A DNA stretch of 64,000 bases from an uncultured Armatimonadetes bacterium. GTDB taxonomy: Bacteria; Armatimonadota; UBA5829; DTJY01. Position numbers and translations under genes: made by a program. Location of the stretch: assembly GCA_963717145.1 (NCBI GenBank), contig OY970325.1, positions 64,001 to 128,000 of the forward strand. The letters run 5' to 3'. This document shows positions 3,809 through 32,305 of the stretch, piece after piece. Within the stretch, counting starts at the first letter, position 1. Each line of letters starts with the position of its first letter. A model generated the notes under the pieces. It was given only the letters and a program-made list of their open reading frames with translations. It had not been told where the DNA came from and searched no databases.

Positions 3809-3855
3809 AGGTTAGACGGAGAAAGGGGATCGCCGCCATGGGGTGTTTACCCCAT
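3809..3855 (-). promoter_or_regulatory. palindromic operator 1 (ATGGGGTGTTTACCCCAT, 3838-3855) with -10 TAACCT
   Basis: 7-4-7 inverted repeat; -10 at 3814-3809, 23 nt downstream on the minus strand. Confidence 0.8.
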
Positions 3856-3856
3856 C

Positions 3857-5339
3857 TCAGGGTCGCAGCACTCGGCAGATCTTGCGGAAGTGGTGGCCGT
3901 AGATGGAGAGAGTGACGGCCAGCGACAACTGGGAGGGGCGGCGGAGGAGCGTCCAGAGGAGCAGGCCCCAGTAGTGGAAACGCTCGCGGCCCAGAACGCC
4001 GAGGCGGAAGTTGGCATGGGCAAACGCCACGAGAGATCGCCAGGTCAGCGAGCGGGAGATCTCTCGGCGGCTCGGTATTCGCGCAGGAAGGTGCGGATCC
4101 GCTGGTAGTACGGCCTGGGCGAATAGATGTATTCCATGAGGCTCTGGTAGCCCTGGCGCAGCGTCTCCCGGTTCATCCGCGGAATAAAGTTGGTGGTCCC
4201 ATCGACATTGTCCCCGGTCGTGTCGGCCGAGCAGGCGGCCCTGGCGGTTCAGCCGTTGGTGAAGCTTGGTGCCGGGCAGGGCTTGCAGCAGGCCGACCAT
4301 CGCCGTGACGATCCCGCTTTTCTGAATGAACTCGATCTGCCGCTGAAAGATCGCGGGCGTGTCGTGGTCGAATCCGACGATGAACCCGCCCTGCACCTCC
4401 AGGCCCGCGCGCTGGATGCGCTTCACGTCGGCGACCAGGTCGCGGCCCCGGTTCTGGCGCTTGTTGCACTCGGCCAGGCTGGCCTCCTCGGGCGTCTCGA
4501 TGCCGACGAACACCTGGTCGAACCCCGCCTCGACCATCAGCCGCATCAGCTCCTCGTCGTCGGCGAGATTGATGGACGCCTCGGTGAAAAACGGGATGCC
4601 GCGCTTCCCTTTCTGCCACTGGATCAGGGCCGGCAGCAGTTCCTCCTTGAGCACCCGCTTGTTGCCGATGAAATTGTCGTCCACGAAGAAGACCGCCCCG
4701 CGCCAGCCGAGCCGGGCGAGGCCGTCCAGCTCGGCGATCACCTGCGCGGTGGTCTTGGTGCGGGGCCGATGTCCGAACATGGAGGTGATGTTGCAGAACT
4801 CGCAGTCGAACGGGCAGCCGCGCGAGAACTGCAGGCTCATGCTCGAATAGCGGCGCAGGTCGGCCAGCTCCCACAGCGGCGCCGGGGTCTGGCGGAGGTC
4901 GGGAAAGTTCGACGACGCATAGACGCGCCGGGCGCCGCCCCGTTCGAGGTCGCGCAGGAACTCCGGCAGCGTCACCTCGGCCTCGTTCAGCACGAAATGG
5001 TCCACTTCGGGAAACTGCTCGTGCTCGATGGTGAACAGCGGCCCGCCCGCCACGATGGTCTTGCCCGCCGCCCGGCAGCGCGCGATGAGCGCGCGGGCCG
5101 AGTCCCGCTGGGCGATCATCGCGCTGATGAACACGAGGTCGGCCCAGGCCAGGTCCTTCTCGCGCAGCTTGCGCACGTTCACGTCCACCAGGCGCTTCGC
5201 CCAAGGCGCGCGGCAGCATCGCGGCCACGGTCAGCAGGCCCAGCGGCGGCAGCGAGGCGCGCTTGTGGATGAACTTCAAGGCGTGCTTGAAACTCCAGAA
5301 GGTGTCCGGGAACTCCGGGTAGAGCAGCAAGGCATTCAT
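3857..5339 (-). CDS. B12-binding radical SAM protein (HpnP-like, DUF4070), frameshifted
   Basis: [11 protein letters not shown]12 domain, [20 protein letters not shown]; frame changes near 5205 and 4225. Confidence 0.9.
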
Positions 5340-6342
5340 GTTACGATCGGCCCTCCACCGGCTCGCAGGCCGCGGTAGCCCACCAGCTTCTGGCGCTGTT
5401 CATCCCAGAGCCGAAAGGTGAGCGAATTGAGGCTGGAAAACAGGGTGACGGGCTTGACGGTCTGAAACAGCGGGACCGCGTTCTGGCACTTCTCCAGGTT
5501 GTAATTGGGAATCCGTGGGTTCAGATGATGGATGTGATGAAATCCAATGCTGCCGGTGAACCATTGCAGGACCCTGGGCAGCTTGTAGAAGGAACTGCCT
5601 TGCAGGGCGGCCGCCGCGTAGTCCCAGGCCGCGTGGCGCGCCCAGCAAACGTCTTCAAACTGGTGCTGCACGTAGAACAGCCACACCCCCGCCGTGCCCG
5701 CCACCGCCATCACCGTCAACTGAATGAGCAGGTAGGCCTTGAAACCGAAGATCCCACCCAGCGCCGCCACCATGCCAGAATCGCCAGGTTGGTCCAATAC
5801 ACCGAGTGACGCTCTCGTTTGCCGGCGCGGGGCGAGGCAAAGCGCTGCTTCACCAGGAACAGGAAGAGCGGCGCCAGCACGAAGAGCACGACCGGGTTGC
5901 GGGCCAGCCGATAGGCCAGCCGTCTCCAGCGAGAGGCGTCCAGGTATTCCTGAACGGTCAACGTCCACACATCGCCCGGGCCGCGCCGGTCCAGATCGCC
6001 GGCGCTCCAGTGGTGGAGGGCATGTTCCCATCGCCAGTGAAAGTAAGGCGTGAAAGTCAGCACGCCGGTGATGAAGCCGAGCCGGTCCGCGGCTCGTTGG
6101 GACCTGAAAAAGGAACCGTGCCCGCAGTCGTGGAAGATGATGAAGACCCGCACCAGGAACCCGGCCGCCAGGATGGCCAGCGGCAGGGCGAGCCAATAGG
6201 AAACGGCCAGGCTGAGGTACATCAGGTACCAGAGGACCGCATACGGAACGAGCGTGTTGACCACCTGCCAGAGGCTGCGCCCGACGGTGGGTGTCTGGTA
6301 GGGAGCCACGAGCGTCTTCCAGGGTTGCTCGGTATGGTTCAC
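5336..6342 (-). CDS. fatty acid desaturase (Des/DesA-like), frameshifted
   Basis: His boxes HDCGH, HALHH and [16 protein letters not shown]; frameshift near 5775. Confidence 0.9.
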
Positions 6343-6348
6343 CGTCTC

Positions 6349-6395
6349 ACCATAACGCAGCGGACTGGCAGATCGCCATGGGGTGTTCACCCCAT
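6349..6395 (-). promoter_or_regulatory. palindromic operator 2 (ATGGGGTGTTCACCCCAT, 6378-6395) with -10 TATGGT
   Basis: -10 at 6354-6349, gap 23 nt. Confidence 0.8.
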
Positions 6396-6413
6396 CGGGG
6401 GTGGCATCACCCC

Positions 6414-8035
6414 TCACGCGCAGGAGTTCTGGTCCCCGGATGGTGAGGCGTTGCGCAGGCTGATCGTTTGGTTTCCGACCCGCCCTTGCGTCCAGCCGGT
6501 GGCAGACCGGGCTTCACGGTCCGGCTCCTCAAGTCCGGCATCCAGCATCCGGGCCGGGAGTTCGGGCTTGCGGGTCAAAGTGCGCCGGCGAAAGGGACTG
6601 CAAAGCAGCTTGACGATGTCGGACGTCTTCATGTGGCGGCCGAAGGCGCGCAGGAGCTTCCAGGTTCGGATCGGGCGCCTGAGAACCCGGTGGAGGAAGA
6701 GCCAACCGTAACCTTTGGCCCGCAGCCGATTCACCACCGCGCTGGGCAGGGTGGTGGGGTCGATATCCGAGCACTTGAACCACTTGTGCCAATCCCGTTC
6801 GTCGTCAATGATCCCGCGCGCCACATACTCCTGCCAGAGCGGCGTCCCGCGATAGGCGCACAAGCGATTGAAGCCGAAGGTGTCCAGCTCCAGGCGCGCC
6901 GCGAAGCGGAAGCTTTCCGCGATGTCCTCTTCGGTTTCATCGGGCGAGCCGACGACAAAGAACCCGTGGACCCTGGCGATGCCCTGCCGCTTGGCTTCCC
7001 GGACGGCGTGCTCCACCTGGGCGGGGGTCTGCTTCTTGTTGAGCCGGTCCAGCACTTTTTGCGTGCCCGCCTCCACGCCAAAGGCCAGGAAATTGCAGCC
7101 GGCCTGGCGCAGGAGCGGCAGTTGCTCAATTCCGACCGAATCGACGCGGCCTTCGCAGCCCCAGTGAAACTCCAGTTTGCGTTCGATGATGCCGCGGCAA
7201 ATCGCCTCAATGCGCTGGCGGTTGATGAGGAAATGGTCGTCGGTCAGGTAGATCGAGCGGTAGCCCAGGTCGTTGAGCTCCTGCAACTCGCCCAGGACAT
7301 GCTCCGGCGAACGGCTTCGCAGCCGGCCCTCGCCCAGGGACGGGATATCGCAGTAGATGCAGGAGTAGGGGCAGCCGCGCGAGGTTTGCACGGTGCAGAA
7401 CTTGTCCAGCGAGAGGACCGCCGGAACATCCAGGGGCAGGGACTCGATGTAGTCGATCGGCAGACTGGTTCGGTCGGGATACGGAAACCGGTCCAGGTCC
7501 TGAAGGAGGGGGCGGGGGGCGTTGGTAACGATGGTCCCGTCGCGCCGCCAGACCAGCCCCGCCACGGAGCCGGGGTCATCGAGGTGGTCCAAATAGTCCG
7601 GCAGGAGCTCCTCGCCTTCACCCACCCCCACGCAGTCGATGTCGGGACAGTCCCCCAGAATGCGGTCCGCATTCAAGGTGGCGAAGGCTCCGCCGACGAT
7701 GATCGGGAGTCTTCGGCGCCTCGGCCTTGAGTCCGCCGGGCCATGCTCTTGACCGCCGGGTAGGTGGTGGTCGAGAGAAAGGAGAGCGCGATCACGTCAG
7801 GTTGTTCTTGTGCAACCGCCTGCGCGATGTGCTCCGCCTTCATCTGCGGGTGGCAGGTATCAAACATCCGCACCTGGTGCCCCCGTTGGCGCAGCACCGG
7901 CGCGAGCGTCTGGATCCCCAGGGGCGGAAACGCCATCACCTTGACCCGGCCGTTGTCCGACTTCGACCGATCCAGGCGCTCGGGAAGCACCCGGCAGAAG
8001 TTTTCATCGCCCACGTAAACGAGGAACGTATTCAT
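6414..8035 (-). CDS. B12-binding radical SAM protein, frameshifted
   Basis: FPPLGIQTLA N-terminal domain, RGCPYSCIYC, YLTDDHF; frameshifts near 7680-7730. Confidence 0.88.
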
Positions 8036-8130
8036 GGGCTGGATCTTCGTCTCTGGCCACGGCCGCAAACGGTTGCGCCGCAAACCCCAAGCGCCAGGTT
8101 CTTTAGCTGGTGGCCGCGTTTCATAACGCC

Positions 8131-8177
8131 AGAGTATCGAGGGGACCCCGCGGGGCGCCATGGGGTGTTTACCCCAT
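8131..8177 (-). promoter_or_regulatory. palindromic operator 3 (8160-8177) with -10 TACTCT
   Basis: ATGGGGTGTTTACCCCAT; -10 at 8136-8131, gap 23 nt. Confidence 0.8.
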
Positions 8178-10142: not shown

Positions 10143-10188
10143 AGGATACGGGAGACGCCGTGCGGATGCTATGGGGTGTTTACCCCAT
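10143..10188 (-). promoter_or_regulatory. palindromic operator 4 (10171-10188) with -10 TATCCT
   Basis: ATGGGGTGTTTACCCCAT; -10 at 10148-10143, gap 22 nt. Confidence 0.8.
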
Positions 10189-10326: not shown

Positions 10327-11024
10327 CTAAACAATGGTCAACTGGACGCTGCTTTCGACGATGCCCGCCGAGATGGCGTAGCGGGTGAGGCCGGCGGTGT
10401 CGTGGATGTTGAGCTTTTGCATCACACTCTGCCGGTGTTTTTCGACGGTTTTGACGCTGATGCCCAGCTCGGCGGCGACCTGTTTGTTGGGCTGCCCTTC
10501 GGCGATGAGTTGGAGGACCTCCGCTTCGCGCGAACTGAGGCGGGGGGCTCCTTTCTTGACCCTGTTTCCCGTGAGCCGGGGCTGACCCCTCCGGGTGGCG
10601 ACAGGCGCTGGGCAATGGCGGGGCTGAAATAGGTCTTGCCTTTCTGGACTTCGCGGATGGCCTCGACCAGGAAGTGAGCGGAGGTTTGTTTGATCAGGTA
10701 TCCGACCGCGCCCAAGGCCACCACTTGCTCGACGTAAGCGTCATCACTGTGGGCCGAGAGAATGAGCACCTTGGTGTCCGGGACGGCCTGGCGAATCTGC
10801 CGGGTGGCTTCCAAGCCATTGAGCAGGGGCATGGCGATGTCCATCACGATCACGGCCGGGCGAAGTTTCTTGGTCAGTTCCACGGCCTGGCGGCCGGTCT
10901 CGGCTTCGCCGACCACCTGGATATCCCCTTCGGCGTCCAACAAGGTGCGGAGTCCTTCCCGAACGATCATATGGTCTTCGGCCAGCAGGACGGTGATAGG
11001 TTTCGTAGCGGTGACATGTTTCAT
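10327..11024 (-). CDS. NarL/LuxR-family DNA-binding response regulator, frameshifted
   Basis: REC domain (LLAEDH, IVMDIAMP, GYLIK); after a shift near 10540, the HTH reads LSSREAEVLQLIAEG..NKQVAAELGISVKTVEKHRQSVMQKL. Confidence 0.92.
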
Positions 11025-11079
11025 AGAAACTCGGGATTCGTTATCATTCATCAGTCAGTGATCAGTAACAGGTTGGCAG

Positions 11080-12294
11080 TCATCCGGCCCTGCGCGCCGG
11101 GGTGTCGCGGAAAGGAATCCGCGCCTGGATGGTGGTGCCGCGGCCGGGTGCGGATTTGACCTCGAGCGCGCCCCCCACGGAGGCGGCGCGCTCGCGGATG
11201 CTGAACAGACCCAGGCCGCCCGTTCCGTTTCGTTTGGCCGGGTGACGATCCGGATCGAACCCGATCCCGTCGTCCGTGACGGCCAACTGAACAAAGTGGC
11301 CCTGCTGACGCAGGCCCACGGCCAGGTGGCGGGCGCGGGCGTGCTGCTCGACATTCTTCAAGACTTCCTGAAGGATGCGGTAGAGGGCGGTCTCGACGTC
11401 GGCGGGCAGGCGAGGGATTCTGCGCACGCCCCGCAGGTTGAGCTGAACGCGCGCGCGTTTGCCGAACTGGTTGCAGGCCATGCGCAACACGGGGAGCAGA
11501 CCCAGATCATGCAACGCGCTGGGATGCAGATCGCGGGCCAGGCACCGGACTTCCGCGGTGGCCTGGTCGAGGAGGTCGCGGAGCTTGAGCAGCTCGGCCC
11601 GGGAGGTGTGGGCCCGGGCGGGCAGCTTGCCCGCCAGGGTGTCGCAGCGCATCAGGACGGCGTAGGTCAACTGGGAAATGTGTTCGTGCAGCTCGATGGC
11701 CACACGCCGTCGCTCGGATTCCTGCACGTCCACCAGGCGGTGGGAGAGGGCCCGCAGCCGTTCCTCGCTCCGCCGGGCCTCCGTCATGTCGGTTACCACC
11801 ATGGTGATGGTCGCGCCCGGGGCCCCCGACGCGGGCAGCGGACGGATCGAGAGATGCACCGGCAGTTGCGAAGCGTCGCCGGCCTGGAGGAGCGCTTGGA
11901 TTTTGGAGCCGGATCGGGCCGCCTTTTTGAGGAGGGGTCGCAGCGCGGCCTGGTCGGCGGCGGAGAGAAAGCGGTGAAAGGAGCCACTGACCACCTGCTC
12001 GAGCGGGAGTTTGACCATGCGGGCGAAGCACTGGTTGGCGTAAAGAATCACCGCGTCCGCCGTCAGGGTGAGCCCGCCTTCGTTCATGGATTCGATGAGC
12101 ACGCGGTAGGCCTGTCCGGCCCCATCCAGGGTATAGACCTGCGGGCCCTGGCGGCCCGCCACCACCACCGCATCCACTTCGCCGCGGCGGATGGCCTGGA
12201 GGGTGAGCTCGGCGTCGGCCAGGCGGGCCCGAAGTTCGGCGAGCTGGCGGGCCGGGGCAGGGCGCGAGGAGGATTGGCGGCGGGCGGTTTTCAA
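11080..12294 (-). CDS. PAS-domain HisKA_3 sensor histidine kinase with AIRRGEVDA N-terminal motif
   Basis: ERRRVAIELHEHISQ H-box, QEVLKNVEQHA, DDGIGF, GLGL; start overlaps the kaiB stop. Confidence 0.92.
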   Translation of the reverse strand: MKTARRQSSSRPAPARQLAELRARLADAELTLQAIRRGEVDAVVVAGRQGPQVYTLDGAGQAYRVLIESMNEGGLTLTADAVILYANQCFARMVKLPLEQVVSGSFHRFLSAADQAALRPLLKKAARSGSKIQALLQAGDASQLPVHLSIRPLPASGAPGATITMVVTDMTEARRSEERLRALSHRLVDVQESERRRVAIELHEHISQLTYAVLMRCDTLAGKLPARAHTSRAELLKLRDLLDQATAEVRCLARDLHPSALHDLGLLPVLRMACNQFGKRARVQLNLRGVRRIPRLPADVETALYRILQEVLKNVEQHARARHLAVGLRQQGHFVQLAVTDDGIGFDPDRHPAKRNGTGGLGLFSIRERAASVGGALEVKSAPGRGTTIQARIPFRDTPARRAG

Positions 12295-12660: not shown

Positions 12661-12990
12661 TCAATTGGCGGGGCGCAAATCCAAGCCGACGAGCACGCGG
12701 GCGGTGTCGGACAGGTCGCCAATGATTTTTCGCACGGGCTGGGGCAGCTTGCGCACCAGGGTGGGAATGGCCAGGATTTGGTCGCCCTTGGAAAGGCGGG
12801 GCTGCTCCAACAAATCGATCACCTCGATGCGATAGCGGCCGTGGAGGTGGGTTTCGCAAATCTGCTTCAGGTTGGAAAGCGCCGTCAGCGATTTGGGCGT
12901 CTGCCCGGCCACGTAAAGGCGCAGTTGCCAGAGTTTGGCCGGCCGGGGATGGGAACCGGAGGCGCGTCGTTTCATGGTTTTGGTTTTCAC
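12661..12990 (-). CDS. kaiB: KaiB-family protein
   Basis: [12 protein letters not shown]...IEVIDL...[23 protein letters not shown]. Confidence 0.95.
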
Positions 12991-14753
12991 TTTTTGTTCC
13001 CTGGTTTGGAGCTGCCGCGCGGGCCGCCTGCCCCGCCGGTGGCATCGGCCTGGCGCAGACGGGCCAATTCGGTCCGCTCGGCGTTCAGCACGCGCGTGCG
13101 CGTGCCGGCCTGCTCGTCCAAGCGCCGCAGTTCCACTTCGTCGCCCTCCTGCTCGGAGCGCAGCTCGGCGATTTGCCGTTCGAGCGCGGCGCGTTTGCGC
13201 GCCAGGTCGCGCTGGCGGCGGGCGGCTTCCTGCCGGGCGGCCAGGGCTTCGGCCTTTTCGCGGGCGGTTTGCGCCACCCGGGCCGCGCCGGTGAGGACGC
13301 CGCTGGGACCGATGTAGGCGTCCACCAGGTCAATGCCCCGGTTGGAAATGAGGAATTCGCGGACCTGGTTGGAGTGGGCCATGCCGCGGGCTTTGAGCAC
13401 GTAGAGCACGCGATTGCGTTCGCCGTTGCCTTCGAAGTCCTGCAAGAGCAGCCAGGCGTCCATGAGCGAGGACATGGCGATTTCACTTTGTTGCAGGGCG
13501 TGGCCGCCGTGGGTCAGGCTGGTAAAGAGCGAGGTGATTTGGCCGCCCTTGAGGAAGTCAATCAGCCGCGTGACCATGCCCTTGGTTTCGGTGTCGGTGC
13601 CGGCGACCAGCAGGCTGGTGATGGGGTCCACAATGACGAGGGCGGGCTGAAAGGCGGCGATCTCCTTGAACATGGTGGCCAGGTGCATTTCCAGGCCGTA
13701 GAGGGTGGGCCGGGCGGAGTGAAAGCGCAGCCAGCCGCGCTGGACCAGCGGCCCCAGGCGCAAGCCGATGGAACGCATGTTGCGGATGATCTGGTTGGGC
13801 GATTCCTCGAACGAGAAGAAGAGCACGCGCTCGCCGCGGCGGGCGGCGGCCTGGGCAATACAGGCGCCGACGCTGGTCTTGCCGGTGCCGGCGGTGCCCG
13901 TGAGCAGAATGCTGCTGCCGCGAAAGAAGCCGCGCCCGCTGAGCATGGCGTCGAGCCGCGGGATGCCGGTGGCAATCCGCTCGCTGGACACCTTGTGGTT
14001 GAGCCCCAGCGAGGTGATGGGCAGGACGCTGAGGCCCTGGTCGCCGATGAGGAAGGGAAATTCGTTGGTGCCGTGCAGGGCGCCGCGATATTTCACCACC
14101 CGCAGATGGCGCGTGGCAATCTGGTCATGGACCCGATGATCGAGCAGGATGACGCAGTCGGACACGTATTCCTCCAGCCCGTGGCGGGTGAGCTGCTCGC
14201 GGCCGCGCTCGGCCGTAATGACGGCGGTCACGCCCTTGTCCTTGAGCCAGCGGAAGAGCCGGCGCAGTTCGGCGCGCAGGATGGCTTCGTTAGGCAGGCC
14301 GGCAAACAGCGCTTCCAGGGTGTCCAGCACCACGCGCCGGGCGCCGATGGAATCGATCGCGTGATTGAGGCGGACGAACAACCCTTCCAGGTCATACTCG
14401 CCGGTCTCCTGGATTTCACTGCGCTCGATGTACACGTAATCGAGCACGATTTTTTTGCGCCGGACCAGGCCCGCCAGATCAAAGCCGAGCGATGCGACGT
14501 TGGCCGTCAACTCGGCTTCCGTCTCCTCGAAGGCGATGAACACGCCCGGCTCGCCGAACTGCGCGGCGCCGCGCACGAGGAATTCGGCGGCCAGCAGGGT
14601 TTTGCCGCAGCCCGCGCCGCCGCAGACCAGGGTGGGCCGCCCGCGCGGCAACCCGCCGCCGGTGATTTCGTCGAGACCCTGGATGCCCGTCGGACACTTG
14701 GGCAAACCAGGTGTCGGGGAGGTGGTCGAAGGAATGGTTCTGTTCATCGTCAT
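12987..14753 (-). CDS. kaiC: KaiC-family double-domain ATPase/kinase with C-terminal coiled-coil extension (KaiC2-like)
   Basis: Two P-loops ([16 protein letters not shown]), FEE motifs, MSSLMDAW phosphosite region, KARGMAHS. Confidence 0.95.
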
Positions 14754-14779: not shown

Positions 14780-16197
14780 TCAGCGGGTCCCCCCCTCGGC
14801 TGGGCTGCCATCGAAAGGAATCTGCGCCCGGATGGTGGTGCCTTGGCCCGGTGCGGATTCGACGCTGAAGTTGCCGCCGACCATCTCCACCCGTTCTCTC
14901 ATGCCGAGCAGCCCCAGGCGCTTGTTCCTCTTGGCGTGCAACACGCGCTGCACCTCGAAGGATTTGCCGTCGTCTGTGATTTCCATGCGAATGGCGTCCG
15001 GGAGTTTCTGGAGGCTCACTTCCACCCGGCTGGCCTGCGCATGCCGGGCGACATTGGTCAGCGCTTCCTGGGCGACGCGATAGAGGACCGTGCGCTTGGC
15101 ACTGTCCAATTCGCTCAATCCGGCCGGAAGTAAAGGTCGTGAAGTGAATGCGGATACCCGTCCGCTTCGTGAAGTCCTTCATGAAGGAATGAAGGCGTGG
15201 CAATCAGTCCCAGGTCGTCCAGGACCGTCGGGCGCAGTTCGCGGGCGAACTGATGCACGATGTCCACCGACTTCTCCACCAGCCGTTGCGTCCGGGCGAT
15301 CGTTTTCTCCGAGCCCTTGGGGTTGACCCGGGCCTCGCTGGGCCAAGGTCGCCAGATGGACATTGATGCCCACCAGGGTCTGGGCGATTTCATCATGCAG
15401 CTCGCGGCTGATGCGCTTTCGTTCTTCCTCCTGCGCCTGCAGAATCTGATGGGACAGATGCCGCAGTTGTTCCTGCATGTGGCGCGACTGCTCCAACAAC
15501 TGGCTTTGGTGTTGCTCGCTTTTCTTGAGGGCTTCCTCCACCGCCTGCCGCCGGACAATTTCCCGCTCGCAACTCCCGGTTCGCAACCGCCAGAGCCTCC
15601 AGGCGGCGTTGCGCCTCCTCCGCCTGCTTGAGGGCGGTGATGTCCGAGACCGCCACCCGGCACCATTTCCGCGGACCGCTGAGGGAGATGGCGGAGGTGG
15701 CGTGGAAGTTCGCCCAGAAGGTGCGTGCCGTCCTCGTTCCGCAGCGGCGCCTCGCAGACCTGTTTTCCGGGCCCGGCGAAGACCTCTTCCAGGAAGGCCA
15801 GAAAGACCGGCTGGCTCGCCGGGGCCACAAAACGCGGCAAGCGCCGGTTGATGAGCCGGGACCGTTCCACGCCGAGCAAGGCGGCTCCCGTCAGGTTCAC
15901 CTCCAGGATCCGGCCCTGTTCATCCAGGGAGAAATAGCCGACCGGGGCGAAATCGTAGAGGTCGGTGTATTTCTCCAGCAGCGCCTCCATCCGGTCCCGG
16001 GCTTCCTGGAGCTCGGCGTTCTGCATCTCCAGTTCGACCTGGTGGACCTGCAATTCGTGGAGCAGCCGCTGGGGGTCGGCTGCCGACTTCGGATCTCCAG
16101 CCTCGGACGCTGATTTCCGCCGGTGCTCCCGCAGCCGGGCTTCGGCGCGGCGGCGCAGTTCGGCGGCATCGGCTGAGGTGTTTGACTTTCTCTTCAT
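14780..16197 (-). CDS. PAS-domain HisKA_3 sensor histidine kinase, multiple frameshifts
   Basis: LHELQVHQVELEMQN, YDFAPVGY PAS, ERKRISRELHDEIAQ, QEALTNVARHA, DDGKSF. Confidence 0.88.
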
Positions 16198-16296
16198 GGC
16201 GCGGTCTTTTCCAGGTGATGGCAGCAATGAGTCATCAGTGATCAGCTGGTCACTCGGTCCGGCCCCAGGACCCGGGAAAGGATCTCCTGCAGTTTG

Positions 16297-17957
16297 TCAC
16301 CTGTCAAAGGGTTTCGCCAGGACGCCCTTGAACCCGTAGCGTTCAGGTTCCAGAACCACGGGATCGTTGGCGTATCCGCTCATGACAATGGCCTTCACGG
16401 CCGGGTCAATCTTGAGCAGCGCCTGGATCGCCTCCTGGCCCCCAACGCCAGCGCGAACCGTCAAATCCAGGAGGACCGCATCAAAGGGACGCCCCTGGTC
16501 CTTCGCGCTTCCGTAAACCTCGACGGCCCTCTGTCCATCCTCCACCAGTTCCACCTCGTGGCCCATCCGCTGGAGCAACGCTCCCAACCAGCTTTCCTCA
16601 CCCCTTCCTCGTCATCCATCACCAGGATCCTTCCCGGCCGCGGAAGGCTCGCTCGGCACCGATGCTTTCTCTTCGCCGAGCAACTTCCGGGAAGCGGGAA
16701 GGTGGATGTGGAAGGTGGTCCCCACCCCCAGCTCTGACTCCACGGCAATCGCTCCTCCATGTTTCTGAATGACCGTATGGCAGATCGTCAGCCCCAGACC
16801 CATGCCCTTTTGATCCCCCCTCTGCTTCGTCGAGAAATAGGGATCAAAGATCTTCGGCAGCACCTCCTTCGCAATGCCGCCGCCCTGGTCGGCAATGCTC
16901 ACCCGAACGTAATCCCCCGGCGGCAGGGAAGGATTTTCATGGGATCCCAGAACCACATTCTCCGCCCGGACGGAGATCACTCCTCCCTCCGGCATCGCTT
17001 CCCGCGCATTCAGGACCAGGTTCCGGATGACCTGTCCGATCTGCCCCGCGTCCACCTCCGCCAGCCAGAGATCCTCCGCCAGGGAGAATTCACACCGCAC
17101 CCGGGAACCGCTCAAGGCCGGCCGGACGGATTCCTGGATCACTCCGGACAGGCAGGTCGGCTTCCGGACCGGCGCGCCTCCTTTGGCAAAGGTGATGAGC
17201 TGCTGGGTCAAGCCTCGGGCCAGTCAAGGCGGTCTGCTTCGCCTCCTCCAGACGATGCGCCAACTCCTCGCCGGGCGGGATGAGCGTCTGGGCCAGTTCG
17301 AGGTTGAGGAGGATCACCGTGAGCAGATTGTTGAAATCATGGGCAATGCCGCCCGCCAGAATCCCCGTGGACTCCAGCTTGTTCAGAATGAGACGATCCT
17401 CCTCGGCCCGCTTGCGCTCGGTGATGTCCGTCAAGCACCGCGCGGCACTCCCGCCCCGACGCCGCCACCGCCGCTTCGATCCGCACCTCGACCGGGGGCT
17501 TGCCTTCCTTGAGGAGCGTCACCTCGCAGAACTCCCTGGCCTTGCTCTCGAAGACCTTCGTGAGGAAGGCGTTGAAAGCGGGCAGGTCGGCCGCGGAAAC
17601 GTAAAGCCCGAAGCGCCGCTTGACCAACCGGGATCGTTCGATCCCCAGCAGGCTGGCGCGGTGAGGTTGGCCTCGCGGATCGTCCCCTCGCGGTCGAGGG
17701 TCAGGTAGCCCACCGGGGCGAAATCATAGAGGTCGCTGTATTTTTCCAGCCCCGCCTCCATCTCGTCCCGGGCTTTCTGGAGTTCCTCGTTTTGCATCTC
17801 CAGCTCGATCTGGTGGACCTGCAATTCGTGGACGAGGCGCTGCGTGTCGGCTTCGGTTCGGGCCTGGCCCGTTTCCGGGTGCTGCTCCCGCAGGCGCTCT
17901 TCGGCGCGGCGGCGCAGTTCGGCGGCATCGGGTGAGAGCGTTCGGTTTCTTTTGCAT
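16297..17957 (-). CDS. hybrid PAS-HisKA-HATPase-REC sensor kinase, multiple frameshifts
   Basis: LAGGIAHDFNNLL, NLVLNAREAMP, PYFSTK..GMGLGL, C-terminal receiver (VMDDE, LLDLT, KPF). Confidence 0.88.
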
Positions 17958-17998
17958 GGCGGGTGCTTTCCAGTGAGTTGCCGGTCATCAGTGATCGA

Positions 17999-20673
17999 CT
18001 ACGGCCCTGGTCCCTTCCTTCGCCTCCGCTTCGCGGCTTGGTCCGCGACCCGCTTCTCCAAACCGGCCTGCTTCGCCCGCAACTTCGCCTCCAGCGTCTT
18101 GGCCGCGGTGATGTCCGCGAAGGTGATCACGACGCCGTCAATCCGGTCGTCCAGCGTGCGGTAGGGCATGATGCGCACGGTAAACCAGCGGCCGTCGCGC
18201 GCGCCAATCGGTTTTTCCGCCGAGGCCAGCGTCCGCAGCACCTCCCGCGCATCGTCGGCCAGTTCCGGGTAGCGCAGCTCCGAGGCCAGGTCGGTGATGG
18301 GCCGGCCCACGTCGGCCGGGATGAGCTTGATGATTTTCGTCGCCTGGGGGGTGAACCGCCGCACGTTGAGATCGTTGTCCAGAAACAGGGTGGCGATATC
18401 CGTGCTGTTGAGCAGGTTCTTCATGTCGTTGCTGGCCCGCGAAAGCTCGTCCACCTTGGCCTGCAACTCGGTGTTGAGCGTCTGGAGCTCCTCGTTCATC
18501 GATTGCATCTCCTCCTTCGAGGTGGTGAGTTCCTCGTTGGTGGACTGCAGTTCTTCATTGGTGGATTGCAGTTCCTCGTTGGCGGACCGGAGTTCCTCCT
18601 GCGAGGTCTGCATCTCTTCGTGGGTGGCCCGCGCCTCGGCGCGGACCTGCAGGAGTTCCTGCTCCAGTTCCGCCAGCCGCGCGCTGCGGGCGTGAGCCTT
18701 GGGCGGCCGGCCCGCCGCTTTGGCGGCCTCGGGCGCGGCCACGTCGGTGAAAACGATCATCACCAACCCCTGCAGCGGCCCGGGTTCCTCGAGTCGCTGG
18801 ACGGTCACATCCACGCACTGCTCGCCGCCGTTGGTCCCGACCTTGAGTCCGTGCAGCGCCACGCTGCCCTTTTGCCGGAGCGCTTTCTGGAAGGCGCCGG
18901 ACAGTTCGTAGCGCAGACCTTCGCGGGCCATGGCGAAGATGTTCCAGTTGGCCTTGCCGGCGGCCGGTTCCAGGTATTTGCCGGTGCGGCCGCTGATGTA
19001 GAAGATGTCGCCCTTGTCATTGACGAGCACGGCCGGCGGGGCGTAACGCTGCAGGACCAACTGATCCGCCAGGGACTGGAGACTGAGCGGCGGTTTCGCC
19101 GCCGGCCGCGCCTCCGGCCCGCCGGGCGGGGCCGCGCTAAAGGACGAGGGAAACTCGACCGGCTCCGGTCGCAGGCCGGACTCCGTCCGCCGAAAGATCC
19201 TGCGATTTGCCGCTGAGCGGGGCAAACAGGTCGGTGAAGCCGCCAATCGTCTCCGCGCTGCCGAGAAACAAAATGCCGCCGGGACTGAGGCTGTAGTGAA
19301 ACAGCGGAATCAGTTTCTTCTGCACCTCCGGGGCCAGATAGATCAGCAGGTTGCGGCAGCTCAGGATGTCCAGCTTGGTAAAGGGCGGATCCATGATGAG
19401 ATTCTGCGGCGCAAAGATCACCATCTCGCGAATCTCTTTGCGCACCCGGTAGCCGCGTTCTTCCTTGGCAAAGAACCGGCTCAGCCGCTCCGGCGACACG
19501 TCGGCGGCGATGTTGTCCGGAAAGACGCCCTGGCGGGCCTTGTCAATCGCGTCCCGGTCCAGGTCGGTGGCGAAGATCTGCAGGGCGAAATTCCCCTTGG
19601 GCTTGGCCTGCTCGACCGCCTCCTTGAACACGATGGCCAGGGAATAGGCCTCCTCCCCGGTGGAGCAGCCGGGCACCCACGCCCGCAGGGCCTGGCCGGG
19701 CGACCGGCTCGCGAGCAGCGCCGGAATGGCCTGCGTCGCGCAACTGCTCCCAGGCGGCGGGATCGCGGAAGAAGTTCGTCACCCCGATCAGCAACTCCTT
19801 GAAGAGCAGATCCAGCTCCTGCGAGTTCTCCTGCAAGTAGCGGACATAGGCGGCCATCTTGTTGATCTGGTGAATGCCCATGCGGCGCTCGATCCGGCGG
19901 TAGAGGGTGTTCCGCTTGTAGAGGGAAAAGTCGTGGCCGGTGTGGGCGCGCAGCAGGATGACCACCTTTTCCAGGGCGCTCTGCGTCTTGTCTTCCAGGG
20001 CCACTTCCGTCCGGGCGATGAGCGGGGTGCGCTGCAGATAGGCGATGATCTTCCCCGGCAGCTCGTCCACCGGGGCCACGATATCCGCCAGCCCGGCGTC
20101 AATCGCGCTGCGCGGCATGCCGTCGAATTTGGCCGTCGCCGGCTCCTGCACCAGCACCACGCCCGCCTTCTCCTTGATGGCGCGCAGGCCCAGCGTGCCG
20201 TCGGAGCCCATGCCGGAAAGAATCACGCCGATGCTGTGCTCCTGCTGGTCCTGCGCCAGGGAGCGGAGGAAGAAATCAATCGGCAGGCGCAGCCCGCGCG
20301 GCGCCGCCGGCTCGAGCAAGTGCAGGACCCCGTGCAGGATGGACATGTCCTTGTTCGGCGGGATCACATAGACGCAGTCCGGCCGCACCCGGGTGCGATC
20401 CTTGACCTGGATGACTTTCATGCCGGTGGCGCGCTGGAGCAGTTCGGGCATGATCCCCTTGTGCGTCGGGTCCAGGTGCTGGACGATGACAAACGCCATG
20501 CCGCTGCCCGCCGGCACGCGCCCCAGGAACTGCTCCAGGGCTTCGAGTCCCCCGGCGGAGGCGCCGATGCCGACGATGGGGAACGAGTACGCCTTTCGGG
20601 GAGGCGGGTGTTGCGCGGCAAGCAGCCTGGGCAGGCTTTTTCGGTCGCCGTTTCGGTGCAGATTTCGTTTCAT
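17999..20673 (-). CDS. CheB/CheR fusion with coiled-coil and PAS domains, frameshifted
   Basis: IVGIGASAGG, VQHL, LSGMGSDG (CheB); GCSTGEEAYS, SCRNLLIY (CheR); NEELQSTNEEL repeats. Confidence 0.93.
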
Positions 20674-20862: not shown

Positions 20863-20937
20863 AGTTTATGGCTCGGAGCAACGTCCGAGCAATGGGGTGA
20901 ACACCCCATAGCGGCAGGTTTGGTCATGCCCTAAATT
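20863..20937. promoter_or_regulatory. palindromic operator 5 (ATGGGGTGAACACCCCAT, 20892-20909) flanked by divergent -10 boxes
   Basis: Minus-strand TAAACT at 20868-20863 (gap 23); plus-strand TAAATT at 20932-20937 (gap 22). Confidence 0.82.
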
Positions 20938-21571: not shown

Positions 21572-21618
21572 ATGGGGTGTTCAGCCCATAGGCCGATCTC
21601 CGGCCCCAGGTGTAAATG
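21572..21618 (+). promoter_or_regulatory. palindromic operator 6 (ATGGGGTGTTCAGCCCAT, 21572-21589) with -10-like TAAATG
   Basis: One mismatch to the consensus; hexamer at 21613-21618, gap 23. Confidence 0.7.
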
Positions 21619-22571: not shown

Positions 22572-22616
22572 GTAGGGTTTTACCCCATAGCCAGGGACGG
22601 GCCTGGGGCGGAGACT
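22572..22616 (+). promoter_or_regulatory. operator 7 (GTAGGGTTTTACCCCAT, 22572-22588) with -10-like GAGACT
   Basis: 7-3-7 variant; hexamer at 22611-22616, gap 22. Confidence 0.7.
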
Positions 22617-30344: not shown

Positions 30345-30350
30345 CGCTGG

Positions 30351-30533: not shown

Positions 30534-30614
30534 GTCACCAGCGGCCATGCCGCGGGACCGCCAGTTTGGCCCGCGGGTCGGTCGGCGGGCAAGCAGGGGA
30601 GCCGCTCCCTGCCT

Positions 30615-31829
30615 TCACCCAAACCTCAAATAAATGGCCTTCAAATACTGGGCTTCAGGGAACGTCGCCGGGTGATCGGGGGGGTGGCCGGTCGTTTGCC
30701 ATTCGGTGAATGGTCGCGCGGTTTCGCGGGCGGCCTGACGCACCGCGCCGAAGAATTCCTCGCTCGAAACATGCGCGGAACATGACGCCGCCACCAGCAC
30801 GCCACCCGGGGCGAGCCAGCGGAGTGCGTCCGAGTTGAGTCGCTGGTAGGCGCCGAGGGCGCGGGCGCGCTCGGCTTCGCGTCTGGCCAGAGAGGGAGGA
30901 TCGAGCACGATCAGGTCGAACTGCCGCACCGGTTTTGCCGCCAGCCATTCCAGGGCGTTTGCCCGGACGCAATCATGGCGGCAGGCGGCCACGCCGGAAG
31001 CGGCTTGATTTAAAGCGAAATTGCGCCGGGCTCCCGCGAGCGCGTGCTCGCTGAGATCGAGATCGGTGACTGATTGCGCCCCGCCGCGTGCGGCGTATAG
31101 CGAAAACCCGCCGGAAAAACTGAAGGCGTTCAGCACGCGCCGGTTGCGCGCCAGCGACTCGACCCGCCGGCGGTTCTCGCGCTGATCGAGGAAAAAGCCG
31201 GTTTTCTGTCCCTGCAGCACGTCGGCTTCGAAGCGCAGGCCGGATTCGAGAAACGTCACCGGGCCGTCAGGCGTTTCCCCGAGCAGAAGCTGGCCGTCTT
31301 CGCGCTGACCCTGTTCTTTGGCGAGGGATTGAATGTTCCGGCTGAGCCGGAGAACGAGCCGCTGCGGATGCAGTGCGGCCCGAATCCAGTCTGCGACTTC
31401 ATCCAGGCGCGGCAACCATGCGGCGGTGTAAAGCTTCAGCACGAGGGTCCGATCGTAACGATCCAGGACGAGACCGGGCCACCCGTCGCTCTCGCCGTTG
31501 ATGCAGCGGCCGCCATTGGTTTGCGCGTCGAACAGTCCCTGCCGGCGCGCCAGCGCTTGCTGCAGCCGCCCCTGCCACCAGGTGGCGTCAATCGTGGCCG
31601 GTTTGCCCGTGTGCAGCACCCGGACGCGGATGGGTGACTCGGGGTCAAACAGACCGATGCCCAAGAATTTGTCGTTACGATCGAAAATGACCGCCAATTC
31701 GCCGAGTCGCCCGGCACGGTTTGCCTCGCGGATGCTGTCGCCATACAGCCACGGATGACCGGACCGGAGGATGGTTTCGGCGGTCGCGGTGACGCGCAGT
31801 CGCAATCGTGGCCTGGGCACAGGGTCCAT
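30615..31829 (-). CDS. RlmI-family class I SAM-dependent rRNA methyltransferase
   Basis: GHPW PUA domain, [41 protein letters not shown]. Confidence 0.9.
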
Positions 31830-32022
31830 CTTGCGCCCAGCTTGCGCCAAGTCCCACGGGAGTTCAAACTTACTTGTCCTCCACCTGATTCCTAGAGGTG
31901 ACAGGTTTCGGGATTCGTTATCCTTCATCGGTCAGTGATCAGTAAACGATGTTTGCGCGAATAGGCGGAGCGGCCGCGGCGCGCCCGGGGCTGAAAGCCC
32001 ATCCCCACAGGCCGGACCAGAG

Positions 32023-32067
32023 GTAGGGTTACACCCCATGGCGCAGGGCCGGCCCACGGCTTAGTGG
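32023..32067 (+). promoter_or_regulatory. operator 8 (GTAGGGTTACACCCCAT, 32023-32039) with weak -10 TAGTGG
   Basis: 7-3-7 variant; hexamer at 32062-32067, gap 22. Confidence 0.65.
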
Positions 32068-32098
32068 TGTCCTCGGCGATAAAACGAAAGACAGTCAT

Positions 32099-32302
32099 GT
32101 GAACTACCGGAACCTTCTGAAACACAGGCAACTCACCATCACCTGCCTCGCCGTCACGGCTTTTGTGATGGGCTGCAAATCCTCGGCGGAATCAGACCGC
32201 AAAGCCACGGCCGGGCAGTTCGACAAGGTCGAAAAGGGGACCAAGCGGGAGCCGGACGAGGTAGGGTTAGACCCCATAGCACGCTGCCAGCCGATGGCAT
32301 AA
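32099..32302 (+). pseudogene. short or truncated lipoprotein
   Basis: Lipobox VMGC; the ORF runs into operator 9 and stops. Confidence 0.5.
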
Positions 32303-32305
32303 TGT
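32261..32305 (+). promoter_or_regulatory. operator 9 (GTAGGGTTAGACCCCAT, 32261-32277) with -10 TAATGT
   Basis: 7-3-7 variant; hexamer at 32300-32305, gap 22. Confidence 0.75.

Follow-up and report, generated by a model that had tools for sequence, protein, structure and literature searches.

Dyad sites in the window and in the genome

A palindrome that recurs ahead of successive genes, at a nearly constant distance from a -10-like hexamer, raises the question of which factor might bind that sequence and what the binding might do to transcription. We considered this question in a 64,000-nucleotide stretch from an uncultured Armatimonadetes bacterium (contig OY970325.1, positions 64,001 to 128,000; hereafter, the window), where an earlier note had described a local regulon with nine operator sites. 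The form ATGGGGT-N4-ACCCCAT was confirmed without mismatches at 3838, 6378, 8160, 10171, and 20892 and with one mismatch at 21572, and the form GTAGGGT-N3-ACCCCAT at 22572, 32023, and 32261. Chance would provide 0.26 matches to the former and 0.17 to the latter, against the six and three found, and none of 100 shuffles attained either number; the window thus contains 9 sites for about 0.4 expected. All nine are real, but the total becomes 11 within 33 kb when we include two sites that narrowly precede the window, AGTGGGTGTTCACCCCAT at genome position 63340 and ATAGGGTAAACACCCCAT at 63785. Public runs contained only small shares of the stretch.

Within the genome (5.37 Mb), perfect copies comprise five 18-mers and three 17-mers, every one of which is inside the window. 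A relaxed scan, allowing up to 3 mismatches with an obligatory [T/G]AnnnT at 22-23 nt and using the reversed genome as the control, returned 33 rows, 12 of which (9 distinct sites) lay at genome 63.3-96.3 kb; the remaining 21 equaled the number in the control (21). The regulon is therefore local, as had been proposed, the genome outside the 33-kb region exhibiting chance-level matches only; and the motif scan of source genome and relatives that the earlier note had recommended revealed a nonrandom placement, clustered here and recurring beside KaiC loci elsewhere. Sequence is shared beyond the motif in two pairs only, 8160/10171 (199 bp, 71%), in which the promoter and leader of the one are a paralogous copy of those of the other, and 20892/21572 (47 bp); the remaining dyad sites are independent occurrences.

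The 18-bp form is a perfect palindrome, ATGGGGTG-WW-CACCCCAT, and the 17-bp form is GTAGGGTT-W-CACCCCAT. The promoter-proximal half is in both forms CACCCCAT followed by RGC and is nearly invariant, the variation residing in the distal half. The 17-bp form brings the half-sites 1 bp nearer to each other, which difference in spacer length is awkward for one rigid dimer and could reflect either two binders or two binding modes.

Predicted targets

The -10-like hexamers quoted previously were all recovered, on the gene side of the dyad at a distance of 22 or 23 nt, and the list of targets proposed along with them—three radical SAM genes, a desaturase, a GT4-GH130 operon, DUF4197, small proteins, and a surface protein—proved to be broadly right. 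On the minus strand, the 18-bp site at 3838..3855 (ATGGGGTAAACACCCCAT on that strand), with TAACCT 23 nt downstream (3814-3809), is predicted to serve small ORFs and then a 603-aa unknown gene (1635-3446) and a PhoU_div-like gene (893-1687). The 18-bp site at 6378..6395, followed at 23 nt by TATGGT (6354-6349), precedes a frameshifted fatty-acid desaturase gene (~6346-5336) and a B12-binding radical SAM/DUF4070 gene (5188-3857) as predicted targets, which pair also lies, in locus L017 of the comparison set described below, behind a site that immediately follows the regulator gene. For the 18-bp site at 8160..8177 (TACTCT 23 nt downstream, 8136-8131) the predicted target is a B12-binding plus radical SAM gene (~8038-6414); and for that at 10171..10188 (TATCCT 22 nt downstream, 10148-10143), which is located 139 nt past the stop codon of the regulator, a small membrane-protein ORF (~10090-9869) and perhaps the gene at 8972-8169.

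The 18-bp site at 20892..20909 faces both directions, with TAAACT (20868-20863) on the minus and TAAATT (20932-20937) on the plus side, and heads on the minus side the same-strand gene run from 20673 to 10327. On the plus strand, the mismatched site at 21572..21589 (ATGGGGTGTTCAGCCCAT; TAAATG 23 nt downstream) would serve the DUF4197 gene (21633-22403); whereas the 17-bp site at 22572..22588 (GTAGGGTTTTACCCCAT; GAGACT 22 nt downstream) would serve a frameshifted GT4-glycosyltransferase gene (from 22632), a GH130 gene (ending at 26399), and further genes from a B12 radical SAM gene (26460-27740) onward, homologues of the GT4 and GH130 genes likewise following two paired sites in L083. The 17-bp site at 32023..32039, with TAGTGG 22 nt downstream, is predicted to act on a 67-aa predicted lipoprotein (32099-32302), and that at 32261..32277, with TAATGT 22 nt downstream (32300-32305), on a VPDSG-CTERM surface protein (32397-33017); this last site falls within the 67-codon ORF. 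Among all these hexamers TAAATG, GAGACT, and TAGTGG are the weaker ones.

That all the sites lie upstream of genes, as had been claimed, holds insofar as genes do follow, but four minus-strand sites are also situated 0-139 nt past the preceding gene's stop codon. This position, together with the capacity of the 18-bp form to fold into a stem of 7 bp closed by a loop of 4 nt, would suit a palindrome acting as RNA—a 3'-end hairpin serving as a terminator, stabilizer, or processing site—or else a REP-like repeat. We regard such a function as scarcely credible, however, for among 53 changed "pairs" in imperfect palindromes 45 were broken, 7 were G-U, and only 1 was compensated, which pattern indicates a DNA site rather than an RNA hairpin. 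Moreover, two 17-bp sites that were folded proved no better than shuffled sequences (z -0.27 and +0.88), a T-run after the sites was absent, window positions 1-34000 gave no Rfam match, the flanks of most site pairs were unrelated, and the sites occurred in both orientations, always facing a -10 box and a gene.

The KaiBC operon and its regulator

The NarL/FixJ-type response regulator that had been noted nearby (10327..11051, minus strand) was confirmed to consist of a receiver domain plus a GerE/LuxR-type helix-turn-helix (HTH), encoded in two frames with a frameshift in the linker; and, as the earlier note had not mentioned, that gene is the last of a kaiC-kaiB-kaiB-PAS histidine kinase-regulator operon. 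Its L050 orthologue has VraR, DesR, NarL, and DevR as nearest solved relatives, and LuxR/GerE-type HTH dimers bind inverted repeats of 16-20 bp. This regulator is the most likely candidate binder of the dyad. If the frameshift is real, the sites in this genome are orphaned.

All the genes of the run are on the minus strand. The kinase (PAS-HisKA_3-HATPase, 11080..12294), the start of which overlaps the end of the second kaiB and which is present in 70 of 80 loci, is the presumed cognate kinase of the regulator; the two kaiB genes (12661-12990 and 12291-12554) were found in 77 and 76 of the 80. The kaiC gene (12987..14753) is of the kaiC2 type, with two RecA-like domains, a Ser-Ser phosphosite pair, and a C-terminal extension of some 50 aa; its product aligned over residues 16-567 with structure 8dba (E 3.8e-195) and scored 716.6 bits against NF006799 (cut-off 408). 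No KaiA was found, the system thus being KaiA-less. Directly upstream of kaiC is a second PAS histidine-kinase gene (14780..16227), frameshifted into a PAS (15115-16227) and a HATPase_c part (14780-15118); in L023, L039, L040, L050, and L089, sites precede genes for HisKA_3 proteins located ahead of kaiC. The run begins with fragments, in several frames, of a CheB-CheR-PAS_10-histidine kinase-receiver gene set (16297..20673), with homologues in 14-16 of the 80 loci. A site upstream of the CheB-CheR-PAS_10 gene likewise exists in L025 and L051 (Pfam), and one at 138-455 nt before a CheB-CheR match in L048, L053, L066, L080, and L086. The regulator's own long operon sits, in this genome, behind the site at 20892, and kaiC carries its own site in other genomes.

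The comparison set consisted of those 80 loci around KaiC homologues (KaiC 76-88% identical), mostly from Verrucomicrobiota, with the reversed motif as the control. The dyad was present in 50 and, at the thresholds used, lacking in 30; among the loci of at least 15 kb, 27 of 37 carried it. The 18-bp form gave 15, 22, and 16 matches at 0, 1, and 2 mismatches (control 0, 0, and 2), and the 17-bp form, 69 with at most 1 mismatch in 35 loci (control 0). The 17-bp "variant" is therefore present as had been described, but instead of being degenerate is the commoner of two conserved forms in other genomes (69 versus 37 matches at up to 1 mismatch). In 34-36 of the 80 loci, an intact orthologue of the regulator accompanies kaiC at a distance of no more than 10 kb; a site lies directly past the regulator's stop codon in L017, L050, L057, and L070, and at least 12 loci have one immediately ahead of kaiC. 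The predicted targets elsewhere include, in addition to kaiC itself and the CheB-CheR-PAS kinase, genes with stress-type domains such as BON, PRC-barrel, DUF883, YflT, and a sigma factor. The motif travels with the operon of the regulator across many genomes. In 52 other genomes of the organism's class, in which the best KaiC matches had 56-62% identity and a single 169-aa fragment 72%, no motif cluster was found, while in a 400-genome sample from the rest of the phylum KaiC (at most 66% identity) occurred in 17 genomes, each with at most one strict match: the distribution of the motif follows the gene cluster and not the host.

The linkage between regulator and site is nevertheless loose, since the regulator is missing from the 10-kb flanks of several site-rich loci (L020, L022, L038, L060); seven of the 30 loci without a site, each of at least 9 kb, moreover contain the regulator (L033, L063, L067, L077, L078, L092, L094). 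Another factor might consequently bind the dyad, either a second LuxR/GerE-type protein or an unrecognized DNA-binding protein encoded elsewhere: in L043 a site precedes the gene of a separate GerE-domain protein, each spacer class might belong to a protein of its own, and 21 of the 69 scanned ORFs in these loci had no family. We nonetheless consider this alternative rather unlikely, in that the loci have no other recurrent DNA-binding family; the conserved core, as obtained by tblastn with the proteins of the window, comprises KaiC, two KaiB, the kinase, and this very regulator, whose gene is flanked by sites in several genomes; and all five genomes tested that had sites but lacked the regulator in the locus possess an orthologue elsewhere at 63-66% identity, unrelated NarL-type paralogues being at most 47% identical.

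Promoter geometry

The arrangement of dyad plus -10 box that had been inferred in the window is real and conserved: in the KaiC loci TAnnnT begins 22-23 nt downstream of 41 of 71 oriented 17-bp sites (22 nt in 33, 23 nt in 8), whereas at any other offset from 10 to 39 it occurs in at most 2 of those sites and at 22-23 nt on the opposite side in none. A weak -35-like hexamer, T-R-G-C-n-A, has as its first base the last base of the dyad, and seventeen bases beyond this hexamer comes the TAnnnT box, of the housekeeping type; these elements fix the distance, so that the center of the dyad is predicted at about -43 to -44.5. An ATG, in the place where transcription would be expected to begin, follows the -10 hexamer by 5-9 nt in 22 of 50 18-bp and in 10 of 48 17-bp sites, many of these ATGs beginning long ORFs (99-825 aa), which proximity suggests that the mRNAs from these promoters are leaderless.

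The near invariance of the promoter-proximal half might otherwise mean that an alternative sigma factor, and no separate transcription factor, recognizes CACCCCAT-RGC as an upstream promoter element, and sigma-70-family genes do lie downstream of sites in L018 and L022. This explanation appears to us very improbable: the -10 box is of the housekeeping type, the gap of 22-23 nt between CACCCCAT and that box exceeds the 16-19 nt of sigma-70-family spacers, no sigma gene was present among the scanned ORFs of this genome's 33-kb region, and the conservation of the distal half as an inverted copy points to a dimer.

The same regulator could, on the other hand, be a repressor that, by occlusion, denies RNA polymerase the -35 region and its contacts further upstream, the regulon being de-repressed when the regulator is inactive; the site extends from about -52 to -35, sharing one base with the -35-like hexamer, and NarL-family regulators can repress. 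Judging from general promoter knowledge, we find repression unlikely, because promoters with so weak a -35-like hexamer should need help and not restraint, and because occlusion would not need a spacing to the -10 fixed to within 1 bp (41 of 71 sites). A fixed single-base spacing of that kind is typical of activators in contact with RNA polymerase.

Proposed mechanism

The sites, their statistics and geometry, their conservation beside kaiC elsewhere, and the domain content of the genes were observed directly. On these grounds we think it probable that the dyad is the binding site of a dimeric factor, the likeliest being the NarL/FixJ-type regulator functioning as a class-II-like activator linked to KaiBC; the steps that follow, namely the binding by the regulator, the activation, and the control by KaiC, are inferred. 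The phosphorylated regulator would bind the dyad at the promoter and recruit RNA polymerase in the manner of a class II activator, turning on a set of 11 promoters confined, in this genome, to 33 kb. The regulon would then contain the three B12 radical SAM genes, the desaturase, the GT4-GH130 operon, DUF4197, small lipoproteins, surface proteins, and the kaiBC-regulator operon itself, whose increased expression would constitute a positive feedback. The kinase, in turn, would sense the state of the KaiBC timer, and the sites would thereby mark out the genes through which a KaiA-less Kai system acts on transcription. A regulon located around a KaiC-KaiB operon, and accompanying such operons in many Verrucomicrobiota, suggests how noncyanobacterial Kai timers may control genes.

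Comparison with known systems

In the literature searched, the motif was described in no paper. With NarL, DevR/DosR, VraR/LiaR, DesR, and ComA the present system shares the receiver plus GerE/LuxR HTH and the HisKA_3 kinase partner and, with the operators of the NarL/FixJ family, an inverted repeat (here of 17-18 bp) upstream of promoters. The NarL "7-2-7" site has TACYYMT heptamers facing each other; compared with that site, the C-rich halves are here reversed in arrangement, as 8-2-8 or 8-1-8. The upstream signaling partner, moreover, is here the KaiBC module.

The comparison with lux-box and FNR class II promoters that had been advanced earlier is apt for the geometry (center at about -43 to -44.5) but not for the protein. 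As in the promoters of LuxR (lux box), TraR (tra box), FNR, and CRP, the dyad abuts or overlaps a weak -35 at a fixed distance from the -10. The class II centers of CRP, FNR, and LuxR are at -41.5/-42.5, the center predicted here being about 1-3 bp further upstream, and the regulator contains a receiver in place of a domain that binds autoinducer or cNMP.

[quoted passage not shown] In contrast, the system described here is without KaiA; its kaiC2-type KaiC bears Ser-Ser sites and, at the C terminus, a coiled-coil extension, in which features that protein resembles the hourglass KaiC of Rhodobacter sphaeroides; the kinase has an N-terminal PAS and a HisKA_3 instead of a KaiB-like domain; the regulator is NarL-type and not OmpR-type; and the regulon is, in this genome, small and local. 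In Pseudomonas, genes for a KaiC homologue, a kinase, and a response regulator occur together as a module that has been linked to stress resistance and the stationary phase, and the associated regulators are reported to be single-domain proteins with no direct DNA binding (10.1101/2022.01.26.477890). Unlike the regulators so described, the one considered here possesses an HTH, and the sequence itself reveals a candidate operator.

Dyad Sites and Their Concentration in One Region

An earlier note, made from the sequence alone, had placed nine copies of an inverted repeat upstream of genes in the window and had read them as the operator of a local regulon under a co-located NarL-family regulator. 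We found all nine: five perfect copies of the 18-bp form ATGGGGT-N4-ACCCCAT (at 3838, 6378, 8160, 10171, and 20892), one copy of that form with a single mismatch (21572), and three copies of the 17-bp form GTAGGGT-N3-ACCCCAT (22572, 32023, and 32261); the −10-like hexamers quoted were likewise present at the distances that had been given. The numbers expected by chance in the window were 0.26 for the 18-bp pattern and 0.17 for the 17-bp pattern, and the six and three sites observed were reached in none of 100 shuffles.

The source genome is a single contig of 5.37 Mb (the window being its bases 64001–128000), and all the perfect 18-mers (5/5) and 17-mers (3/3) of that genome lie inside the window. 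Two extra sites were located shortly ahead of the window's first base: AGTGGGTGTTCACCCCAT, at genome position 63340, followed 23 nt on by GATGAT and then by the ORF of a 99-aa lipoprotein, and ATAGGGTAAACACCCCAT at genome position 63785, followed by TAAATT and by a gene for a secreted protein that extends into the window, which additions bring the total to 11 dyad sites within 33 kb. A relaxed scan of the genome, allowing up to three mismatches with an obligatory [T/G]AnnnT at 22–23 nt downstream, returned 12 rows (nine distinct sites) in the 33 kb and 21 rows elsewhere, this latter figure being equal to the 21 matches in the reversed genome used as a control. With the perfect copies confined to the window and the matches elsewhere at the control level, the regulon is indeed a local one in this genome. 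The sole other strong match, ATGGGGT-TGT-ACCCCAT (perfectly palindromic, its halves 3 nt apart), at genome 3341411–3341427, outside the window, had no −10-like box at 22–23 nt on either side.

Because flanking sequence is common to only two site pairs—8160/10171 (199 bp, 71%) and 20892/21572 (47 bp)—the repetition of the dyad is not mainly the product of duplication. Just past site 8160, at about 8222–8270, a short stretch of tandemly repeated units resembling GGTTTGAT was also seen, either within the ORF 8169–8972 or at its end.

We further considered whether the repeat might act as an RNA hairpin, an intrinsic terminator, or a REP element, and rejected that reading because the base changes were uncompensated, the 17-bp sites folded about as their shuffles did, and both an Rfam match and a T-run were absent. 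Among the 53 changed pairs in 18-bp sites with one or two mismatches, 45 were broken, seven became G-U, and one was compensated; two 17-bp sites gave folding z-scores of −0.27 and +0.88, and the 18-bp site tested one of −1.82; no Rfam family matched within window positions 1–34000, and no T-run followed the sites.

The Regulator Belongs to a kaiBC Operon

Pfam confirmed the receiver (Response_reg, E 7.7e-28) and the GerE/LuxR HTH (GerE, E 6.6e-17) of the co-located regulator, and assigned the gene to a minus-strand operon, kaiC-kaiB-kaiB-kinase-regulator, which had been overlooked in the earlier note. The interpretation offered there was upheld in part and considerably enriched: the sites, their spacing, and the regulator stood, and the control exerted by that regulator keeps the status of a prediction. 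On the minus strand the operon comprises kaiC (12987–14753), a first kaiB (12661–12990), whose product, at 107.9 bits, fell short of the NCBIfam cut-off of 110, a second kaiB (12291–12554), a PAS-HisKA_3-HATPase_c kinase gene (11080–12294) that overlaps the second kaiB and adjoins the regulator gene, and the regulator itself, with the receiver at 10422–11051 and the HTH in another frame down to 10327, which gene is frameshifted here and intact in its orthologues. Upstream of kaiC on that strand are a frameshift-split second PAS kinase (16227–14780) and the fragments of a CheB-CheR-PAS_10-kinase-receiver gene set (20673–16297). Since site 20892 points into this same-strand run of 20673–10327, the kai genes and the regulator may themselves be located behind a site.

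The KaiC, identified by Pfam, is a full-length, double-domain protein (716.6 bits with NCBIfam NF006799, whose cut-off is 408) that aligned with PDB entry 8dba at E 3.8e-195 over residues 16–567, the C-terminal extension (residues 500–567) being covered; its Ser-Ser pair aligns to the SS of 8dba, which pair is mutated to EE in 8fwi. The entry 8DBA is the KaiC of Rhodobacter sphaeroides (Pitsawong et al., 2023; PMC10076222), and that article describes an hourglass timer of the kaiC2 subgroup having a C-terminal extension of some 50 aa and two serine sites. No match to KaiA (PF07688) was found in the source genome, the control search being positive in Synechococcus elongatus. The locus thus has the composition of a kaiC2-type, KaiA-less KaiBC module—a double-domain KaiC with the Ser-Ser pair and the extension, together with KaiB—for which a timekeeping function would be predicted.

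Conservation across Genomes

The motif cluster was absent from 40 relatives and from all 52 other genomes of the class, where the best KaiC proteins were 56–62% identical, plus one 169-aa fragment at 72%; the organism's own family contained no comparable KaiC, the matches there being merely 27–29% identical. From a KaiC search with one genome per species, which yielded at least 296 confirmed loci among 600 candidate stretches, we took the best 80 (1.2 Mb in all), whose KaiC proteins are 76–88% identical and which are mostly labelled Verrucomicrobiota (Opitutaceae, Verrucomicrobiae, and others). The 18-bp form was matched in these loci 15, 22, and 16 times at zero, one, and two mismatches, respectively (0, 0, and 2 for the reversed pattern), and the 17-bp form 69 times at no more than one mismatch, in 35 loci (control, 0). 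At that last stringency, 50 of the 80 loci had at least one site of either form, as did 27 of the 37 loci of at least 15 kb and 4 of the 10 shorter than 8 kb. Among the 30 loci with no such site were seven of at least 9 kb that hold the regulator (L033, L063, L067, L077, L078, L092, and L094). The 17-bp form had the consensus (G)GTAGGGTT-W-CACCCCAT-RGC and the 18-bp form ATGGGGTG-WW-CACCCCAT-RGC, the promoter-proximal half being nearly invariant in both.

Of 400 other genomes sampled from the phylum, 17 had a KaiC, in every instance no more than 66% identical, and each had at most one strict motif match. A single other sampled genome, G353, showed many: nine strict strand matches, as TRGGGT-CAG/CTG-ACCCCAT, over at least seven contigs. 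We rejected this phylum relative as a second carrier, there being no KaiC match in its genome (85% complete); its matches are probably an unrelated dispersed palindromic repeat.

In the whole genomes behind five of the 80 loci, the strict strand matches numbered 21 (on 9 contigs), 11 (3 contigs), 4 (1 contig), 3, and 0, all the controls giving 0, and in some hosts the regulon therefore includes more sites, more widely scattered, than in the source genome. Paired sites 20–60 bp apart were frequent, as in the loci L025 (15434/15484), L083 (7268/7320), L020 (2992/3015 and 13108/13131), and L043 (2878/2934), and consisted of an 18-bp site and then a 17-bp one, two tandem 17-bp sites, or divergent sites, which pairings suggest cooperative or divergent promoter arrangements.

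The element is conserved in many Verrucomicrobiota and has probably entered the source genome as an island; the locus is also a clean example of a regulator and operator-bearing promoters that have apparently travelled as one into a lineage from whose relatives both are absent.

Promoter Geometry and Predicted Leaderless Starts

Because the 17-bp form is asymmetric, its orientation is defined. At 71 such oriented sites, a TAnnnT box began 22 nt downstream in 33 instances and 23 nt downstream in 8 (41/71), all the other offsets from 10 to 39 giving no more than two each and the opposite side giving none at 22–23; for the palindromic form, a box occurred at 22–23 in 25 of 88 orientation-instances. 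The position matrix revealed T-R-G-C-n-A starting from the last base of the site, which constitutes a weak −35-like hexamer at 17 nt from the −10 box. If that box is taken as −12 to −7, the dyad would span about −52 to −35, with a center at −43 to −44.5. The site thus abuts or overlaps the −35 region at a fixed distance from the −10 box, as at class II promoters, for which arrangement a dependence on a bound factor is predicted.

Of 50 18-bp sites, 22 had an ATG situated 5–9 nt past the hexamer, as did 10 of 48 17-bp sites (32/98 in all); the counts at the other offsets between 0 and 29 were mostly 0–2, apart from a count of four for the 18-bp form at offset 22. From many of those ATGs a long ORF extends (e.g., of 825, 253, 242, 209, 191, 172, and 99 aa). 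This position provides independent support for the assignment of the −10 box, and would fit mRNAs without a leader, their 5′ end lying at the predicted transcription start. The ATGs following the −10 boxes of sites 3838, 8160, 10171, and 20892(−), at 3809–3800, 8131–8122, 10143–10134, and 20863–20853, respectively, were discarded as genes, their ORFs being just 21–36 codons in length with poor coding scores.

As to expression data, none of the public sequencing runs contained more than 0.13 of the sampled words, and the material consisted only of contigs, mostly pieces of conserved genes about 90% similar. One contig from an RNA library spans 9749–10110, just downstream of the start predicted for site 10171, which contig proves neither transcription nor the start.

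Predicted Targets in the Source Genome

The targets predicted in the source genome are a 603-aa protein with no known family together with a PhoU_div-like protein (site 3838); a fatty-acid desaturase and then a B12 radical SAM/DUF4070 gene (6378); a second B12 radical SAM gene (8160); a small membrane protein (10171); DUF4197 (21572); a GT4, a GH130, a third B12 radical SAM gene, and the genes after it (22572); a small lipoprotein and a VPDSG-CTERM protein (32023 and 32261); and two secreted proteins, one being the 99-aa lipoprotein (genome 63340 and 63785). The three B12-binding radical SAM genes, of which one bears DUF4070, are paralogous (3857–8161; 26460–27740), and the desaturase adjoining them is a membrane protein; none of the three products reached the cut-off of any NCBIfam equivalog, and a lipid modification would be only a guess at their chemistry. 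A desaturase and a B12 radical SAM gene recur in locus L017, behind a site immediately 3′ of the regulator, and homologues of the GT4 and the GH130 occur in L083, downstream of its site pair.

In several genes of the island the reading frame is split: the desaturase (5336–6417), the regulator (10327–11051), the second kinase (14780–16227), the CheB-CheR-PAS-kinase set (16297–20673), and the GT4 (22632–24470). Overlapping frames occur elsewhere in the window as well, for example at 47940–48979 and 49249–50442. Since so many genes are frameshifted and such frames are found elsewhere in a single-contig assembly, indel errors of the assembly are as likely a cause as gene decay. An ORF at 15628–16113 (+) scored well for coding and was matched by tblastn in 14 loci, but was rejected as the antisense of the PAS kinase at 15115–16227 (−); conserved antisense frames can give a misleading impression of this kind where the GC content is high.

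Predicted Targets in the Other Loci

In the other loci the first plausible ORF downstream of a site with a −10-like box was picked automatically, palindromic sites being counted on either side having a box, so that some of the picks may be wrong. Of the 81 ORFs obtained in this way, 12 were kaiC, and the remaining 69 were scanned against Pfam. That scan identified BON proteins (6 ORFs), single receiver domains (5), HisKA_3 proteins (5), CheB or CheB-CheR-PAS_10 (4), PRC-barrel (3), HBM-like helical proteins (3), full sigma-70-family factors (2), OMP beta-barrels (2), glycogen-binding CBM proteins (2, one fused to HPr), and ice-binding-like proteins (2), along with single examples of DUF883, YflT, Gly-zipper, RRM_1, DUF2934, DUF3185, GerE, and others; 21 ORFs had no family. 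General-stress or stationary-phase regulons typically include BON (OsmY), DUF883 (ElaB), YflT, and PRC-barrel proteins, and a sigma factor is likewise known from them; by that analogy the resemblance of the predicted targets to members of such regulons offers a lead.

The Candidate Dyad-Binding Protein and a Proposed Mechanism

In tblastn searches with the window proteins, KaiC was matched in all 80 loci, the first and second KaiB in 77 and 76, the PAS-HisKA_3 kinase in 70, the receiver and HTH parts of the regulator in 34 and 33, and CheB-CheR and PAS_10 in 16 each. The regulator, which in the loci follows the kinase or precedes kaiC, is the sole DNA-binding protein among these recurring families. 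In five genomes that have sites and no regulator within 10 kb of kaiC, an orthologue was encoded elsewhere in all five (63–66% identity); one further match at 56% was interrupted by a stop, and unrelated paralogues reached at most 47%. A site lies immediately 3′ of the regulator stop in the loci L017, L050, L057, and L070, and 139 nt past that stop in the source genome. In the phylum sample, where seven candidates per genome were scored, nothing went past E 1e-65, the organism's own split regulator included.

The elements expected of a NarL/FixJ operator are thus present—a receiver-plus-HTH gene, a HisKA_3 kinase alongside, and an inverted repeat of 17–18 bp—and binding of the regulator to the dyad is predicted. 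That a different protein binds the dyad we consider unlikely. In favor of such a protein, the regulator is missing from the vicinity of kaiC in several site-rich loci, and the two spacer lengths may reflect two proteins, or else a flexible dimer or two binding modes; against it stand the regulator's being the only DNA-binding protein to recur and its orthologues in the five genomes. The recognition region and the motif are both highly invariant across the loci, too much so for an analysis of covariation. The best description of the element is that of a putative operator for the NarL-type response regulator associated with KaiBC, located at promoters predicted to be of the activator type and often leaderless.

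In the mechanism that we propose, the kinase, whose gene overlaps the second kaiB, would probably read the state of KaiBC; a dimer of the phosphorylated regulator would bind the dyad and, like a class II activator, bring the housekeeping RNA polymerase to promoters whose −35 region is weak; and the regulator would feed back on the operon that holds kaiBC and its own gene. The opposite sign, by which the regulator would act from the dyad as a repressor whose site overlaps the −35 region, strikes us as improbable: from general promoter biology, the weak −35 region and a spacing fixed to a single base favor activation. On the activator reading, a KaiA-less KaiBC hourglass timer would control transcription in non-photosynthetic Verrucomicrobiota with the dyad as its cis-element, the signal passing from the state of KaiC to the PAS-HisKA_3 kinase, then to the NarL-type regulator, and from there, by class-II-like activation, to the kai operon itself and to leaderless genes of the stress or dormancy type; the timer, its regulator, and the promoters that bear the operator would move between lineages as an island, with a lineage-specific cargo here (the B12 radical SAM enzymes, the desaturase, and the GT4-GH130 operon). 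We advance this scheme in its entirety tentatively, at somewhat below an even chance.

Comparison with Known Systems

How Kai proteins control genes outside the cyanobacteria is an open question, which this locus may help to answer. In the openly available literature searched, we found neither a DNA-binding regulator output or an operator for KaiBC outside the cyanobacteria nor any joint mention of both motif halves with "binding site"; a search on KaiC in Verrucomicrobia yielded nothing relevant among the 15 of 46 papers listed. For the hourglass KaiC of Rhodobacter, the available portions of the article describe no output pathway (PMC10076222), and for Pseudomonas a preprint describes KaiC homologues accompanied by a kinase and by single-domain regulators without direct DNA binding (10.1101/2022.01.26.477890). 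The present locus and at least 50 related ones have a DNA-binding regulator in the kai operon and a sharply defined predicted operator with a fixed promoter geometry, by virtue of which combination the regulon can be read from the sequence alone, so that binding, regulon content, and physiology become directly testable. With respect to known regulators, the nearest solved relatives of the orthologue in locus L050 are VraR (4e-44), DesR, NarL, and DevR; and the system differs from the lux box of the LuxR quorum-sensing regulon in that LuxR-type proteins have an N-terminal autoinducer-binding domain, whereas the regulator here has a receiver in its place.
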